From Pseudomonadota bacterium (GTDB lineage Bacteria; Desulfobacterota; Desulfobacteria; Desulfobacterales; RPRI01), in assembly GCA_043825875.1 (NCBI GenBank), contig JBDRRF010000068.1, forward strand, positions 1 to 64,000: a stretch of 64,000 bases of DNA, given 5' to 3'. The notes under the pieces were generated by a model. The model saw only the letters and a program-made list of their open reading frames with translations. It did not search any database and had not been told where the DNA came from. This document shows positions 54,388 to 62,857 of this stretch, piece by piece. The position numbers were made by a program, and so were the translations under genes. Position 1 is the stretch's first letter. The number at the start of each line of letters is the position of its first letter.

Positions 54388-54751
54388 TTTTTTAGAATGG
54401 AATATTTAATAATCAGAAATCAAGCGGACTTTTGGCCTCCTTTAAGGTTTGGCTCTTTACCGCATGGGCATATAATCTCCTTCTTCCGGATAGTTTGAGG
54501 GTTATGTTACATTAACAAGGACCGGTATATTTCATAGTTGACGTGACACTACTGCTGAAGCTTCACCACCATACTACACAATCTTTCTTAAGGTGTATAT
54601 TTTTAACCCTTAACCCATAATATTGTATATAATATGTAAATATTTGCTCTTTATAAAAATAATTTGCATTATTTGGTGTTGTGGTTTATAATATGCCTAT
54701 AATTAAACTTTAATGGAATATAATACTTTAATATGCACTATTGGTGACATT

Positions 54752-55090
54752 ATGGCATTCAATAAAATATCCCCGGCTGCTATAGCGGAACAATTAGGAG
54801 ACAGACTAAAACAAGCGAGGTTGAATACCGATTTAACCCAGGCCCAATTGGCATCAAAAACCGGTTTAAGCAGGAGGACGATTCTGAATGCAGAAAAAGG
54901 TAACGTCCAGCTAAAAAATCTGGTCGCAATTATGGCTGGATTGGACTTGGTAGACCACCTTAATTTTTTCTTACCCGTACAAGAAATATCTCCTTTACAA
55001 TTGGCTAAACTAAAGGGGAAAAAACGGCAACGCGCTTCAAGATCTCAAAAGAGAGAATTACCGATCAGAGAGGATAAGCCTTTATGGTAA
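54752..55090 (+). CDS. hipB: HipB-like XRE antitoxin
   Basis: HTH 'RLKQARLNTDLTQAQLASKTGLSRRTILNAEKG'; overlaps hipA start. Confidence 0.8.
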   Translation: MAFNKISPAAIAEQLGDRLKQARLNTDLTQAQLASKTGLSRRTILNAEKGNVQLKNLVAIMAGLDLVDHLNFFLPVQEISPLQLAKLKGKKRQRASRSQKRELPIREDKPLW

Positions 55091-56406
55091 TAGAAGTCGT
55101 TAGAGTAAAATACAATGGGCAAGATGTTGGTGCTGTCAGTTTTAATACTGAAACAAGCGTAGGTGCATTTGAGTTTGAATCTAGCTTTATTAAAACTGGC
55201 ATAGAGCTTTCGCCTATAAAAATGCCTTTATCCAAAAGGATTTACTCGTTTCCGGAAAATAATAATGAAACTTTCAAAGGGTTACCTGGCTTAATTGCAG
55301 ATTCTTTGCCGGATGATTTTGGTAATGCGGTGATGAATGCCTGGATAGCTGCTCAAGGAAAGTCAGTAAAAGATATCACCCCATTGCAACGCCTTCAATA
55401 TACTGGCAACCGTGGCATGGGGGCATTAACCTATTCTCCGGCAATCCAACGAAAAAACTTGAATAAGTCTCAACATATTGAAATCCAATCTTTGATTTCT
55501 ATAGCCCAGGAAATTATAAATAAACGGGAACAATTCAAAGCAACACTTGGGTCACAAGGACAAGAAAATAAAGAAGCAATGATGGCGCTATTGTCTGTTG
55601 GTATGAGTGCAGGTGGTGCCAGACCTAAAGCAGTACTTGCATTTAACAAAGACTTCACTCAGGTGAGATCTGGGCAGACAGACGCACCTGAGGGGTTCAC
55701 TCATTTCGTAATGAAATTTGATGGAGTCAGTGAAACGAACAAGAATAAGGAAACATTTGGAGATCCAATGGGGTATGGCACAATGGAGTATGTTTATCAC
55801 CTCATGGCAAAAGCATGCGGGATAGATATGATGCCCTGTCACTTGCTGAATGAAGGAAACAGACGCCATTTCATTACTAAACGGTTCGACCGGGACGGCA
55901 ATCATAAGATACACATACAAACATTAAATGGTATAGCACATGTCGATTATAAAAAAGTCGGTTCTTATTCATATGAGGAAGTATTCTCACTTGCAAGAGA
56001 GCTTGGATTAAGCCCGAATGATGCATTGCAAATATTTAAACGCATGGTTTTTAATATCATTGCACGTAATCACGACGATCATTCTAAAAATATTGGATTC
56101 ATGCTGGACAGTCAACATCAGTGGCAATTGGCTCCAGCCTATGATTTAGCTTACAGTTACAAACCAGGAAGTCCTTGGGTAAGCAGTCATTGGATGAGGC
56201 TCAATGGGAAGAGAGACAATTTTATACGTGAAGATTTCTATGGCCTTGGAAAATTAAGCCCGATATTTGCCAAACGGAAAATTGATCATATCATTGACGA
56301 AACCACAGAGCACATTTCAGCATGGAACGAATTGGCAATTGAACATGGCGTTCCAAAATCATTGGTAGAAATGATAAATAACAATTTACGATTAAAAATC
56401 AAATAA
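55084..56406 (+). CDS. hipA: HipA family toxin kinase
   Basis: DSLPD.FG, SAGGARPKA, KRFDR, NHDDHSKN, LAPAYDL. Confidence 0.93.
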   Translation: MVIEVVRVKYNGQDVGAVSFNTETSVGAFEFESSFIKTGIELSPIKMPLSKRIYSFPENNNETFKGLPGLIADSLPDDFGNAVMNAWIAAQGKSVKDITPLQRLQYTGNRGMGALTYSPAIQRKNLNKSQHIEIQSLISIAQEIINKREQFKATLGSQGQENKEAMMALLSVGMSAGGARPKAVLAFNKDFTQVRSGQTDAPEGFTHFVMKFDGVSETNKNKETFGDPMGYGTMEYVYHLMAKACGIDMMPCHLLNEGNRRHFITKRFDRDGNHKIHIQTLNGIAHVDYKKVGSYSYEEVFSLARELGLSPNDALQIFKRMVFNIIARNHDDHSKNIGFMLDSQHQWQLAPAYDLAYSYKPGSPWVSSHWMRLNGKRDNFIREDFYGLGKLSPIFAKRKIDHIIDETTEHISAWNELAIEHGVPKSLVEMINNNLRLKIK

Positions 56407-56598: not shown

Positions 56599-57582
56599 CT
56601 ATAAATCATCCAAAGGGCTTATCACGCCATGCCCGCCTTGCTGAAGAACATGGGTATAAATCAGGGTGGTGGAAATATCGTTGTGTCCCAAAAGTGCTTG
56701 TATAGTTCGTATATCAGTACCCCTTTGTAACAAATGTGTTGCAAAGCTGTGTCGGAATGTATGTGCACTAATGCGTTTGTTTATATGTGCCTTTCGAACA
56801 GCCGATTTAATAGCTTTGTTAATTACGCTCGGATCAATATGGTGACGTCGTGTAACACCGCCGCGAGGATCAGTTGATAAGGAACTTGCAGGAAATACAT
56901 ACTGCCACCCCCATTCCTTCGCCGCATTTCGATATTTGATTGACAGAGCATTTGGCAAATAAACTTCACCATACCCATTTGACAAATCGTTTTCATGCAA
57001 AGCTTTTACTTTATTCAGATGATTTTGCAGAAAAGGAATGACCGATTCAGGAAATGTAGTTACACGGTCTTTATTCCCCTTCCCGGATCGAACTGTAACA
57101 GTTTTCATTTTTTGGTCTATATCCTGAACACGCAACCGGATTGCTTCTGAAATCCTTAACCCGCATCCATATATCAGTTTTACTACCAATTGGGGTATAC
57201 CTTCTATAAAAGATATGACTTTAGAAGTTTCTTCCTTAGTCATTACCACTGGAACATTTAATTTTTTAGATGCCCGGATTGAATTAATCTGCTTTTCCAA
57301 AGGTTCTTTTAAAACCTTTTTATAGAAAAATACCAGGGCATTAAATGCCTGATTCTGAGTTGCAGGAGATACGTTTCTATTCACTGCAAGATCTGTTAAA
57401 AATATTTCAATCTTATGTTCCCCGTCAGATAGATCTTCGCGTGACTTCATTTTATGAAATAACACATATCTTTTTATCCAGTCGCAATAGGTTCTTTCTG
57501 TGTTGATTGAATAGTGATGGAGTCGCATAACATCCCGAACTTCATCCATTAGCTTACTTTCTTTTTGTGTTGACATGCTCAT
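56599..57582 (-). CDS. intI: Integron integrase
   Basis: GLRISE, GKGNKDR, HTFRHSFATH, LLGH, IYTH, plus integron-specific insert 'VYLPNAL..KY..A..EWGWQYVFP'. Confidence 0.97.
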   Translation of the reverse strand: MSMSTQKESKLMDEVRDVMRLHHYSINTERTYCDWIKRYVLFHKMKSREDLSDGEHKIEIFLTDLAVNRNVSPATQNQAFNALVFFYKKVLKEPLEKQINSIRASKKLNVPVVMTKEETSKVISFIEGIPQLVVKLIYGCGLRISEAIRLRVQDIDQKMKTVTVRSGKGNKDRVTTFPESVIPFLQNHLNKVKALHENDLSNGYGEVYLPNALSIKYRNAAKEWGWQYVFPASSLSTDPRGGVTRRHHIDPSVINKAIKSAVRKAHINKRISAHTFRHSFATHLLQRGTDIRTIQALLGHNDISTTLIYTHVLQQGGHGVISPLDDL

Positions 57583-59671: not shown

Positions 59672-60112
59672 ATGATCCCAACTATCTCAGAAAACCATAC
59701 TGAAACATCTGTAAATGTAAGAGGCATAGTTGAACGAGTTTTACGGTATCAAAAGCCCGAAACACTGAACGATTTAAACGAAATATTGATTCTTGATAAA
59801 TCGGAACCTGATATTGGATTCGGATGCTATCGAAAAGCAGAGGGGAAAATAGAAATATATTTGGATAATCTTTTAAAATGGCAGCCTTGGATTCTTAAAA
59901 AGTCATATTTATTTCCGTATATGACGATAGCGATGGCTTTATGTCATGAACTTGATAACCATGTCACAAGAGATAACTCCAGAATTGATCGAGAAAAGTC
60001 AGCAGAAAATAGTGTGATAAAATATCTCTATCCATCATTAGGCGTTTTTAAACCAGCAGTCGGGATTTTACGACTATTTGGCAAAAAAAAAGATGGAATG
60101 GTTAACCAATAG
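59672..60112 (+). CDS. Cassette 4: hypothetical protein with zincin-like HELDNH motif
   Basis: Lies between GTTAACC and GGTTAAC; ORF reads into attC4. Confidence 0.7.
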   Translation: MIPTISENHTETSVNVRGIVERVLRYQKPETLNDLNEILILDKSEPDIGFGCYRKAEGKIEIYLDNLLKWQPWILKKSYLFPYMTIAMALCHELDNHVTRDNSRIDREKSAENSVIKYLYPSLGVFKPAVGILRLFGKKKDGMVNQ

Positions 60113-60169
60113 CTCCACCTGACCCCAAGGGCCTCGCGGCCCTGGGGCCAGGTGAGCATGGCGTTAGTT
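60100..60169 (+). other. attC4
   Basis: GGTTAAC...GCTCCACCTGACCCCA/TGGGGCCAGGTGAGC...GTTAGTT. Confidence 0.9.
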
Positions 60170-60181
60170 TTAATAAATGAA

Positions 60182-60547
60182 ATGAAGAAATTAATATTAT
60201 TTATTATAATCATTGTTCCAATATACTCGTTTTTAGGGTGCTCTAAAGAAACCAAAAGCAGAAATCTAGATGAATTAGTACTCTATATTGTTCAGAAAGC
60301 TAATGAAAACGATACTAAGTATTTTGAAAAATATCTTGACGAATCATATAAGGGGCAATCATCAAAATTAATCGGAATGATTAAAAAAAGTGAAATGCTA
60401 TCAAACTATAAAAAGCATTTTAGTGAAACATTACAAAATACAGCTAATTTAAATTATCACTATTTGAAAAAGGGTTGTCATTTTCAAATAGATTTAATTA
60501 AAAATAATGACGGTTGGAAGATAAATAGGATTTGGTTTTGTAGATAA
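60182..60547 (+). CDS. Cassette 5: lipoprotein
   Basis: MKK plus hydrophobic stretch and FLGC lipobox. Confidence 0.75.
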   Translation: MKKLILFIIIIVPIYSFLGCSKETKSRNLDELVLYIVQKANENDTKYFEKYLDESYKGQSSKLIGMIKKSEMLSNYKKHFSETLQNTANLNYHYLKKGCHFQIDLIKNNDGWKINRIWFCR

Positions 60548-60548
60548 A

Positions 60549-60625
60549 AACTAACAACTCCTTCCAGCTGACCGTCACTTCGCCGCTTTGCGGCTTCGTT
60601 CCGGCCGGTGAACTTGTCGTTGAGC
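60549..60625 (+). other. attC5 (IS inserted at its GTT core)
   Basis: AACTAAC...TTCCAGCTGACCG/CGGCCGGTGAA...GTT|GAGC. Confidence 0.85.
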
Positions 60626-62464
60626 CTGTCGAAAAAGTAAATATTTCTTTTTAAAGTAGTAAAATATACGTGAAAAATATGCTGATCTGTGGTATAGAGT
60701 AGTAAATCAATTAACGAGTTACCCTCCGGAGAATCACAGATGGCGCGATATAAATACTATGACTACAATCAGCTGATGATGGTGCCGGTATCACTGGAAG
60801 AACAATTGATACCAGGCACATTGGAATACGCAATAAACCATGTGGTGGAAGAACGTCTTGACTTAAGGGTTTTTGACGAGCGGTATCGCAACGACGAAAC
60901 AGGTCGCAAAGCAATAGATCCAAAGATTTTGATAAAGATCGTGCTTTTCGGTTATTCAAGAGGAATGTTATCATCACGGTCTTTGGAGCGGGCATGCAAT
61001 GAAAATATAATATTCATGGCTTTGGCATGCGGGCAAAAGCCGGATCACAGTACCATAGCAGCTTTTGTCTCTTCAATAGATAAAGAGATCGATTTGTTAT
61101 TTACGAAGGTGCTTTTGGTCTGTGAAGAAGAAGAATTACTTGGCGGAACACATTTCAGCCTGGACGGTTTGAAGCTTTCTTCGAATGCGGCAAAGGAATG
61201 GAGCGGCACATTTTCCGATTTGAAAAAGAAACAGGAAGCATTGAATCGGAAAGTAAAAGAGGCAATTTCAGAACACCGGGAGGCCGATAAAAGAGAAGGT
61301 AGGAAGTCTGATACTGATCAGCAGCGTTTTGAAAAACGTATCAAGAGACTGAAGCAGAAAGCCGAAAATATTGAAAAGTTTCTTTCGGAGAACGAACCTA
61401 AAATCGGATCCGGTGGCAAAGAGATACAGAGTAACGTCACAGATAATGAATCAGCCAAGATGGCAACTTCGCACGGGGTATTGCAAGGATATAATGCAAA
61501 TGCGATAGTAGATGAGAAACATCAGGTAGTAATGCATGCCGAGGCTTTTGGAAAAGGCGATGACAGCTCCATTATGGAACCAATGCTTAAGGGAGCGAAA
61601 GAAAAACTGGAAGCTGCTGGATGGGAAGACCCTCTAAGGGACAGGACAATCAGCGCTGACACCGGATACTACAGTGTAAAGAACCTTGAAGCCTGTAAGG
61701 AATCAGAAGTTGATGCCTATGTACCTGATCCGCAGTTTAGAAAGAGAGATATCCGGTTTGCAGATGCAGGTCGGCACCGCCGTTCGGTTGATAAGCGCAA
61801 GGAAAGATACAAATCAAAAAAGTACTTCAGTGTTGAAGACTTCAAGTTGGATGATCACACGGGCAAATTAATTTGTCCTGCAGGCCATGGGCTATATGTC
61901 AAGAATCGTAATTTTGTGACAGGGAACGGATATAAAGGAATTGCCTACCAAGCGCCGAAGACAGCGTGCCGTGATTGTCAATTGCGATCCAAATGCTTGC
62001 GCAATCCCAATACGGTATCGCGTCAGGTCCATGTGTTCGAAGGGAATCGGCCTGGGAGCCTTACTGATGAAATGAAGCAAAAGATCGACACTGCTGAGGG
62101 TCGCCGCACTTACAGCAAACGTCTTGGTATTGTGGAACCGGTTTTCGGCAACATTCGAGCATGTAAGAAAATGGACAGGTTCACGTTGCGTGGGAAGATA
62201 AAGGTAAACATCCAATGGATGCTTTACTGCCTTGTGCATAATATTGAAAAGATCATTAATTACGGAAAAAGTTATGCGGTGGCACCAGCATAATAGGAGA
62301 TCAGGGCAGAGATCTATAAGCCAAAGCAAAATCAGCGATATTACGTGCTCCTATTTTTAATATTAAGATGCAAAGTACAAGTTCTTCATAAAAATTAATA
62401 TTTTCTGAAAAAATTGCTTTGCTGATAAAATATCCGAACTGTAAAGTAGTTTTTCGACAATCTC
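60622..62464 (+). mobile_element. IS1182-family insertion sequence
   Basis: TIRs GAGCCTGTCGAAAAAGTA / TAGTTTTTCGACAATCTC (15/18 match), flanked by GTT on both sides. Confidence 0.9.
60740..62293 (+). CDS. IS1182-family DDE transposase
   Basis: 'SSRSLE', 'PDHSTIA', 'LDGLKL', 'GYNAN', 'ADTGY', 'CPAG', 'VEPVFGNI'. Confidence 0.92.
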   Translation: MARYKYYDYNQLMMVPVSLEEQLIPGTLEYAINHVVEERLDLRVFDERYRNDETGRKAIDPKILIKIVLFGYSRGMLSSRSLERACNENIIFMALACGQKPDHSTIAAFVSSIDKEIDLLFTKVLLVCEEEELLGGTHFSLDGLKLSSNAAKEWSGTFSDLKKKQEALNRKVKEAISEHREADKREGRKSDTDQQRFEKRIKRLKQKAENIEKFLSENEPKIGSGGKEIQSNVTDNESAKMATSHGVLQGYNANAIVDEKHQVVMHAEAFGKGDDSSIMEPMLKGAKEKLEAAGWEDPLRDRTISADTGYYSVKNLEACKESEVDAYVPDPQFRKRDIRFADAGRHRRSVDKRKERYKSKKYFSVEDFKLDDHTGKLICPAGHGLYVKNRNFVTGNGYKGIAYQAPKTACRDCQLRSKCLRNPNTVSRQVHVFEGNRPGSLTDEMKQKIDTAEGRRTYSKRLGIVEPVFGNIRACKKMDRFTLRGKIKVNIQWMLYCLVHNIEKIINYGKSYAVAPA

Positions 62465-62478
62465 GTTAGGATAAAACA

Positions 62479-62715
62479 ATGAGTAAAAGAGAATATTTTG
62501 TAATACAAATTGGAAATACGCAACTCGATAACCCAATTAATATGACTATGAGTACTAAACGCAAAAATAAAACTTTTTGTGAAGAATGTGGTAATGCCAT
62601 AGAGGTTGGAGAAACATATTACTACGAGCCTCTTGGTCAATATTATTATTGTGTCGGATGTATTGGAGTCGATGGGGATCCATATAATTATGTGGCTACA
62701 CCTGATCTATATTAG
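62479..62715 (+). CDS. Cassette 6: small CxxC...CxxC zinc-ribbon-like protein
   Basis: CEEC and CVGC; lies between GTTAGGA and TCCTAAC. Confidence 0.7.
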   Translation: MSKREYFVIQIGNTQLDNPINMTMSTKRKNKTFCEECGNAIEVGETYYYEPLGQYYYCVGCIGVDGDPYNYVATPDLY

Positions 62716-62795: not shown

Positions 62796-62857
62796 TCCTA
62801 ACCATGGCTTTCACTGCGACGGCAAAAAGCCACCGCGCGTGAAGCCAAGCGTTCGCG
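62796..62857 (+). other. attC6
   Basis: TCCTAAC..GGCTTTCAC/GTGAAGCC..GTTCGCG. Confidence 0.88.

Follow-up and report, generated by a model that had tools for sequence, protein, structure and literature searches.

Background

Integrons are the main gene-capture system of bacteria, and two kinds of mobile element are so far known to home into their attC recombination sites, both with unusual nucleic-acid-guided machinery. This work will focus on a different kind of element at such a site: an insertion sequence (IS) of the IS1182 family, with a DDE transposase, in the gene cassette array of a chromosomal integron. It lies in a 64,000-nucleotide stretch of a Desulfobacterales genome (GenBank assembly GCA_043825875.1, contig JBDRRF010000068.1, positions 1 to 64,000 of the forward strand; contig C68 of genome G000 in our numbering), which we call the window. 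We believe it very likely that the element belongs to a lineage of IS1182-family DDE elements that insert, in a fixed orientation, at the GTT of the R' core at the 3' end of attC.

Several described systems come close. The IS1111-attC group (ISPa21, ISPst6 and ISKpn4, of the IS1111/IS110 type) consists of insertion sequences that home to attC in a fixed orientation and form a clade defined by its target (PMC3001079, PMC11187229). Their transposase is of the DEDD type and is guided by a seekRNA (PMC11187229), and they enter attC close to its 5' end, in antisense to the cassettes (PMC3001079). The group IIC-attC introns, such as S.ma.I2, are a monophyletic subset of a larger class and are found specifically in attC, where they enter the bottom strand near the 5' end, opposite to cassette transcription (PMC3001079). 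Within the IS1182 family, IS1272/TnSha1 of staphylococci targets inverted-repeat stem-loops; it replaces the stem-loop and leaves no target duplication, and no circles were reported to be detected (PMC5678879). A review cited in the same paper holds that some IS1182 members target palindromes. One study of plant-associated cassettes reports 49% of its recovered cassette-associated transposases as IS5-like, with no comment on their targeting (PMC11089894). Those IS5-like transposases may hide members of the lineage described here.

An initial annotation of the window, made from its letters alone, did not know attC targeting as established for IS1182 DDE elements. Our literature search of open-licence papers and preprints bears this out: it found no description of an IS1182 or any other DDE element that targets attC. 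The sub-lineage is apparently undescribed and widespread.

The element and its insertion site

The element occupies 60622-62464 on the plus strand (1,843 bp), between cassettes 5 and 6; it starts GAGCCTGTCG and ends CGACAATCTC. Its left terminal inverted repeat, GAGCCTGTCGAAAAAGTA (60622-60639, plus strand, 18 nt), is 83% complementary to the right one, TAGTTTTTCGACAATCTC (62447-62464, plus strand; inverted-repeat search), and the same motif stands at the ends of its relatives. Between the repeats is a single open reading frame (ORF) of 517 amino acids, uninterrupted and co-directional with the cassette genes (60740-62293, plus strand). The protein scores 300.8 bits against the IS1182 family model NF033551, above the cut-off of 270, with residues 7-506 aligned to positions 2-486 of a 488-position profile. 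It also matches PF13751 (5e-26), PF05598 (1.3e-15) and PF01609 (2.1e-10). The element is, by family model, single ORF between inverted repeats and these domain-level matches, an intact IS1182-family insertion sequence with a predicted DDE transposase. IS1182-family elements run to about 1.3-2 kb (ISfinder). A promoter and terminator scan found no outward promoter-like site at the right end, and promoter-like sites are fewer than in shuffled sequence.

This is the only full copy in its own genome; a DNA search found in addition two short fragments of relatives on other contigs. Genome G011 holds a copy that is 93% identical over IS bases 1-1843. The host also carries a second, very distant IS1182-family transposase, only 26-29% identical (G000:C79:142819-144198, locus L005).

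The right end of the window is a chromosomal integron, with intI and a cassette array. Short ORFs, mostly without annotation, read rightwards from about 57740 (ORF list, NCBIfam), and 3' of each cassette ORF is an imperfect inverted repeat that opens with ...AAC and closes with GTT.... Read by eye, each cassette begins with seven bases whose complement opens its own attC (GTTAGCA/TGCTAAC, GTTATGG/CCATAAC, GTTAACC/GGTTAAC, GTTAGTT/AACTAAC, GTTAGGA/TCCTAAC, GTTCGCG/CGCGAAC). This chain of complementarity is the signature of circularised cassettes inserted between the G and the TT.

The site to the left of the element is attC5 (60549-60621, plus strand). It opens with R'' AACTAAC (60549-60555), the complement of the cassette 5 start GTTAGTT, continues through an imperfect hairpin and ends ...cttgtcGTT, with the R' triplet at 60619-60621. 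It fits an attC in having RYYYAAC/GTTRRRY cores, an R'' that matches the start of its own cassette, a place after an ORF and an intI nearby. Its hairpin is weak (bottom strand -11.5 kcal/mol, z -0.53 against shuffles; arm score, defined below, -6.8, empirical p 0.09), and we call it an attC because of the cassette chain and its position in the array, not because of its folding energy.

The IS is flanked by two copies of GTT, at 60619-60621 and 62465-62467. The right copy opens cassette 6: GTT is followed by AGGA (62465-62471, plus strand), and the exact complement TCCTAAC is found at 62796-62802, so the original R' of attC5 read GTTAGGA. All of this the initial annotation had seen (attC5 ending in TC-GTT, the IS directly after it, then GTT-AGGA and its distant complement), and the sequence reads as it said. 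It had left the duplicated target as either GTT or CGTT, and here only the shorter form stands. The C that precedes the right GTT belongs to the IS, closing its ...CTC end, and we take the repeat to be GTT because relatives with other duplicated triplets carry the same terminal C. It was also correct that the new junction, GTT+GAGC, fits GTTRRRY. The pairing of R'' AACTAAC with this new R' falls from 5 bases to 3.

The same triplet at the ends of relatives

Relatives came from four sources. Peptide seeds run against a set with one genome for each species gave 18 loci. Related genomes, searched by DNA and by protein, had matches in 7 of 61 and 20 of 401. Metagenome contigs were scanned for exact occurrences of the end motif GAGNCTGTCGAAAAAGT, a query blind to the flanks (at least 80 loci), and a plasmid collection was the fourth source. 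Element ends were located by the end motif and oriented by the transposase frame. The set with at least 70% protein identity comprises L017-L031 (genome contigs), L077, L104 and L138 (metagenomes) and L164. Locus L033 was excluded from the end counts: its left end is a spurious motif match with 3 mismatches, and it holds only transposase residues 401-489.

At this level of identity, readable ends abut GTT on the left in 12 of 12 cases and on the right in 17 of 18. The orientation is constant, with the left IS end at ...C-GTT and the right end at GTT-[A/G/C].... The flanks vary from locus to locus, and since they all differ these are separate insertion events. The metagenome scan gives a similar picture: of the 82 matches listed, 13 are preceded by GTT and 14 by AAC, against an expectation of about 1.3 for either triplet. 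The AAC is the same junction seen from the other end, and two of the rows are one contig listed twice. Host records for the lineage include Desulfobacterales-type genomes, Spirochaetota, Planctomycetota and Pseudoalteromonas. The plasmid collection gave only three distant matches (about 40% identity), none of them on a mobile resistance integron.

The wider family helps to interpret the triplet. The same triplet stands on both sides in 31 of the 33 elements with both ends read (GTT 21, GCT 6, TGC 2, CCA 1, AAC 1). Judging from these flanks, the family as a whole duplicates 3 bp, with a strict target particular to each clade. We built a quick maximum-likelihood tree of 34 rows, leaving out proteins shorter than 440 amino acids and duplicate contigs. 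The clade of the window element (14 rows, support 94) is all GTT. So are another clade, whose ends are of the TGTAGAAAAA type (6 rows, support 100), and L043/L072 and L092. A nested clade of 9 rows (support 99) holds the GCT, TGC, CCA and TCC elements. Copies that are 40% identical and also target GTT occur in Pseudoalteromonas piscicida and Pseudoalteromonas sp. NC201. From this distribution on the tree, together with the Pseudoalteromonas copies, GTT targeting looks old and broad.

Sister clades, 51-56% identical, include L157, L174 and L181 in genome G346, L159, L175 and L182 in G429, and L158, L165 and L168. G346 and G429 have three copies each, and all six read CTGCT, then the IS, then GCTAT/G, with GCT duplicated. 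Another sister clade inserts in TTGCC after TTGC and duplicates TGC. The element ends of all clades open with GAG, including those that target other triplets, and the fourth base varies (C, A, G, T). Since GAG is family-wide, the fit of the new junction to GTTRRRY is a by-product and not an adaptation to attC.

Miniature, gene-less copies with the same ends are also found at GTT. In L012 an attC-like hairpin ending ...agaCGTT is followed by a 217-bp miniature and then GTTAGGC, with GCCTAAC 895 nt downstream. Other miniatures duplicate GGA, GCT, TGA or GAA. Five miniatures of 158 bp on metagenome contigs (L074, L083, L088, L135, L048) lie in a shared sequence, GATTACAGGA on one side and AGGAG on the other, with GGA duplicated; these seem to target another repeated element.

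Two further sets of loci deserve mention. In the sub-lineage of L041, L043, L072, L078 and L140 (47-58% identical), the left flanks share ...TAAYGCAAACCGTT without an attC-like hairpin, and the right flanks read GTT[AG]GGC[AG]GCC. Right-end stumps of related IS, 42-70 nt long, are followed by ATT instead of GTT (ATTATCG, ATTAGCT) at L003:1501-1548 (G000:C57), L011:1500-1570 (G008:C9) and L016:1500-1545 (G011:C186); the G008 and G011 stumps have a common downstream cassette and different left break points.

Are the targets attC sites?

A GTT could be many things, so the flanks themselves have to be scored. Our arm-pairing score is the best pairing between the 26 nt that precede the GTT and the 26 nt that follow an AAC at any distance of 36-140 nt upstream. 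It takes both strands into account and is compared with 600 random GTT sites of the window's genome (an earlier version used 400 CGTT sites). Five attCs of the window that are defined by the cassette chain score -7.5 to -17.2, with empirical p from 0.07 to <0.003. The score is specific and not very sensitive.

The left flanks of the close clade pass at p<=0.05 in 8 of 11 scorable cases (binomial 5.6e-9), and 6 of those 8 pass at p<=0.002. The initial annotation had proposed judging the idea by the flanks of collected relatives, and in the close clade most of these carry both the GTT and an attC-like hairpin. For GTT-flanked left ends in the wider family, 21 of 44 reach p<=0.05 and 13 of 44 reach p<=0.01 (Mann-Whitney 2.6e-9). 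The flanks that pass are textbook attCs: GCCTAAC..., CGCTAAC... or ACATAAC..., bulged stems, then ...C-GTT. When distinct 18-mers are pooled (47 left, 55 right), C stands at position -4 in 72%, a GGTGA-like block lies at -16 to -12, and the right side reads GTT-A/G-G-G-C/T. This pattern is, on its consensus letters, the attC 3' end: an L' box, a spacer and the R' core.

Two other approaches were abandoned. A covariance model of attC built from the IS-adjacent hairpins was dropped when MAFFT left the arms out of register, with bulges at different offsets, and RNAalifold kept only 6 pairs, 5 of them with compensatory changes. A naive attC scan of C68 was discarded as too noisy, with many matches inside genes.

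Integrons are also found where the lineage is found. In the window, 3 kb separate the element from intI. The copy in G209:C2, 47% identical and flanked GTT/GTT, is 8 kb away from an intI; it follows five attC-like sites and is followed by another attC, and the cores there are chained (GTTGGGC/GCCCAAC, GTTAGGT/ACCTAAC, GTTAGCC/GGCTAAC, GTTAGAG/CTCTAAC). In G457:C4 a truncated copy lies 5 kb from an intI. It lacks the first 298 bp of the IS (L184:6842-8451), and the break is 3 nt past an attC-like GTT (...GAGCGTT, then CGC, then CCAAGG...); as an anecdote, this hints at a later history inside arrays. An integron integrase above the cut-off is present in 7 of the 10 host genomes tested and in 0 of 14 control genomes, with the integrase seen close to the IS in only three genomes, the window's included.

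Weighing the explanations

One site and one orientation recur at many independent attC-like sites in many genomes, with the same anatomy and the same GTT duplication. We believe this is best explained by a lineage that homes to the attC R' core, but several observations weigh against that reading and should be taken seriously. The duplication is read from the repeat and not from a before-and-after pair, as the search for an empty site drew a blank: among the contigs listed for runs X1-X4, none skips 60622-62464. Not every end is at GTT. The right end of L138 is followed by GTA, and the flanks of L177 read GTT/ATT. The relatives have ancestry in common, and the samples behind some of the loci may be related. 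The arm score is home-made and crude; attC5 itself gets no further than its p of 0.09 and folds no better than shuffles. Three close-clade flanks fail p<=0.05: L022 (0.06), L026 (0.15) and L104 (0.55). By eye L022 and L026 look like short or bulged attCs, but L104 does not; that element, 70% identical, interrupts an SDR-like ORF after 21 codons, at a place that has no hairpin, and the frame stops at the IS. Among the 44 GTT-flanked left ends, 23 fail p<=0.05, including the miniature copies L039, L041, L047, L139 and L140 and the L043/L072 sub-lineage, in which ...CAAACCGTT is common to the left flanks and no hairpin is present. In flanks of 1.5 kb, further attC-like sites show only modest enrichment (0.22/kb vs 0.07/kb in controls, Poisson p 0.006; 0.11/kb for other clades). 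Finally, an exact R'/R'' chain test, limited by short flanks and imperfect cores, recovers the expected 7-mer in 4 of 23 rows (3 distinct sites: the window, L012 twice, and L058) vs 1.2 expected.

Some of these points lead to another idea: that a short stretch of duplex, roughly C-GTT-R-G, is all the transposase reads, and that attC is hit for its core, with the hairpin and the integron being irrelevant. L104 is just such a case, at ggcGTT/GGGG inside the start of its ORF, and the 23 flanks without a convincing hairpin point the same way. So do the sister clades, which target short fixed sequences outside hairpins (CTGCT/AT in the 6 copies of G346 and G429, and TTGC/C), and the miniatures that duplicate GGA within GATTACAGGAAGGAG. 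The information outside the GTT is low, at 0.7-1.1 bits per position. Yet C-GTT-[ACG] occurs thousands of times per genome, and 8 of 11 close-clade insertions are at attC-like hairpins, against 5% of random GTT sites. The GGTGA-like block also keeps a fixed distance upstream. The crude score misses true attCs (attC2 has p 0.07, and attC5 fares as said), so the true share of attCs must be larger than the share scored. We consider the short-sequence idea unlikely. It does bear on one part of the earlier claim. The initial annotation proposed that the IS may target attC hairpins; the homing to the attC R' GTT in one orientation stands, but the hairpin itself would be only one possible cue, given L104 and several miniatures at GTT without an attC-like hairpin.

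The integrase could instead be responsible, with IntI placing excised IS circles (joined end-GTT-end) at attC by a crossover between G and TT, as it would a cassette lacking an attC. In favour of this, the IS sits precisely at the triplet where IntI crosses over, its orientation is fixed, end-GTT-end junctions exist (in G011:C199 and in a 925-nt contig of run X2), and a single crossover would leave the same GTT on both sides. The difficulty is with the rest of the family, where sister clades and miniatures have exact 3-bp repeats of GCT, TGC, CCA, GGA, TGA and GAA and no link to integrons; such a repeat is therefore what DDE transposition ordinarily leaves behind. In addition, a hairpin formed by the two ends would place the junction GTT in a loop rather than a paired R box, L104 lies outside any attC, and 3 of 10 host genomes have no integron integrase above the cut-off, although these assemblies are incomplete. 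We regard IntI as a very improbable agent of these insertions. That an unspecific IS simply landed on the crossover triplet of attC5 is an argument the window alone could not answer, since with one full copy in the genome no preference can be seen. It is refuted by the relatives: at 1/64 per end, the counts of left and right ends at GTT have chances of about 2e-22 and 3e-30, and we give coincidence practically no weight.

Under targeting of the attC R' core by the transposase, which we prefer, the mechanism would be as follows. The transposase would insert the element at the GTT and duplicate 3 bp. The left IS end would always face the attC, so the transposase gene would be co-directional with the cassettes. 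The target would probably be cut as an ordinary duplex with a 3-bp stagger, because the hairpin next to the IS is undamaged and the GTT alone is repeated, as in the sister clades with other triplets. What the transposase reads may be the C-GTT-RRRY core, the L' box about 9 nt upstream, the hairpin, a bound protein, or some mix of these.

The head-to-tail junctions (right end, GTT, left end) in G011:C199 and in the X2 contig, which joins 62462 to 60617, possibly come from related samples. Re-insertion into the recreated attC-GTT/GAG would explain them, and so would circular or tandem transposition intermediates. It is logical, by the cassette rule, that the IS would now be the 5' part of cassette 6 and movable by IntI. 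A true integron parasite would go further: GTT+GAG would keep the attC recombinogenic, IntI would excise, shuffle and export the IS and its miniatures between arrays and hosts, and the rebuilt site would be targeted again to give head-to-tail arrays. We put this forward tentatively, as possible but more doubtful than not. A bolder form of it holds that IntI itself can integrate IS circles at attC.

Other features of the array

The integrase gene intI lies on the minus strand at 56599-57582, divergent from the cassette array; it scores 437.2 bits against TIGR02249 (cut-off 265; residues 12-327 on profile positions 2-315). The site attC4 (60100-60169, plus strand) has R'' GGTTAAC at 60100-60106 and R' GTTAGTT at 60163-60169, the latter being the complement of the attC5 R''. 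Its bottom strand folds at -21.3 kcal/mol (z -4.76), with an arm score of -17.2 that none of 400 controls reached. The cassette 5 ORF (60152-60547, plus strand) encodes 131 amino acids with no family match in NCBIfam, and the cassette 6 ORF (62479-62715, plus strand) encodes 78 amino acids, also without a family match. In 16 genomes of the genus cassette 5 has no match, and cassette 6 matches through its attC only; in runs X2-X4 parts of the stretch, in cassettes 5 and 6, are without coverage. That site, attC6 (62796-62857, plus strand), has R'' TCCTAAC at 62796-62802 and R' GTTCGCG at 62851-62857, with a bottom strand of -14.2 kcal/mol (z -1.64) and an arm score of -12.8 (empirical p 0.003). 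Its core, 62799-62846, recurs with different flanks in contigs of runs X1-X4. Copies of the core elsewhere in the genome (G000:C109:61794-61842 and 66577-66615; G000:C91:47745-47781) suggest further attC clusters outside this integron.

A HipB-like/HipA-like pair adjoins intI at 54713-56406, outside the array, with weak NCBIfam matches (1.7e-10 and 4.4e-9). Beyond the window, the same array holds a group II intron (L186:1200-2975, equal to about 64700-66475 of G000:C68), directly after a GC-rich hairpin. Rfam RF02001 matches it with 129 bits at L186:1291-1465, and a reverse-transcriptase ORF spans 1870-2889. This intron lies in sense orientation, in contrast with the known attC-type introns, which lie antisense. 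Directly 3' of it is a gene-less element of 108 bp with family-type ends, GAGCCTGTAGAAAAAC ... GACAAACTC (L186:2973-3080, equal to G000:C68:66472-66579), with ATT to its left and GTTCGGC to its right. With it, the array holds two distinct members of the lineage.

Implications

If a classical DDE lineage does home into attC, it is a third, independent invention of that habit, and one that works at the IntI crossover triplet in sense orientation. The lineage is widespread in environmental bacteria. It bears on how a DDE transposase can read a degenerate, structure-defined site, on the disruption, silencing and rearrangement of cassette arrays, and on whether transposons and their miniature derivatives spread as cassette passengers. 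There is a practical side for annotation as well. Such insertions split arrays, and attC finders and cassette callers can miss the boundaries.

Comparison with described systems

The element resembles an integron gene cassette in lying between two cassette boundaries, in placing TT + RRRY after the G of the preceding attC, and in being co-oriented with its neighbours. Unlike a cassette, it has terminal inverted repeats and a transposase and lacks a 3' attC of its own. The attC scan of C68 has no AAC...GTT hairpin ending at 62465-62467, and the last 150 nt of the IS hold no complement of GTTGAGC.

The group IIC-attC introns are retroelements, with a ribozyme and a reverse transcriptase, whereas the ORF here encodes a DDE transposase instead. 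The IS1111-attC elements likewise home to attC, with a different enzyme and a different insertion point. The transposase here is of the DDE IS1182/IS5 type, with no other family among its matches, and the IS lies at the 3' GTT of the attC in the sense direction, with a 3-bp duplication and classical terminal inverted repeats. IS1272 belongs to the same IS family, and the two part ways over the fate of the target. Here the hairpin is intact beside the IS, three base pairs are duplicated and head-to-tail junctions occur, and the target is one class of site, attC, with one defined triplet.

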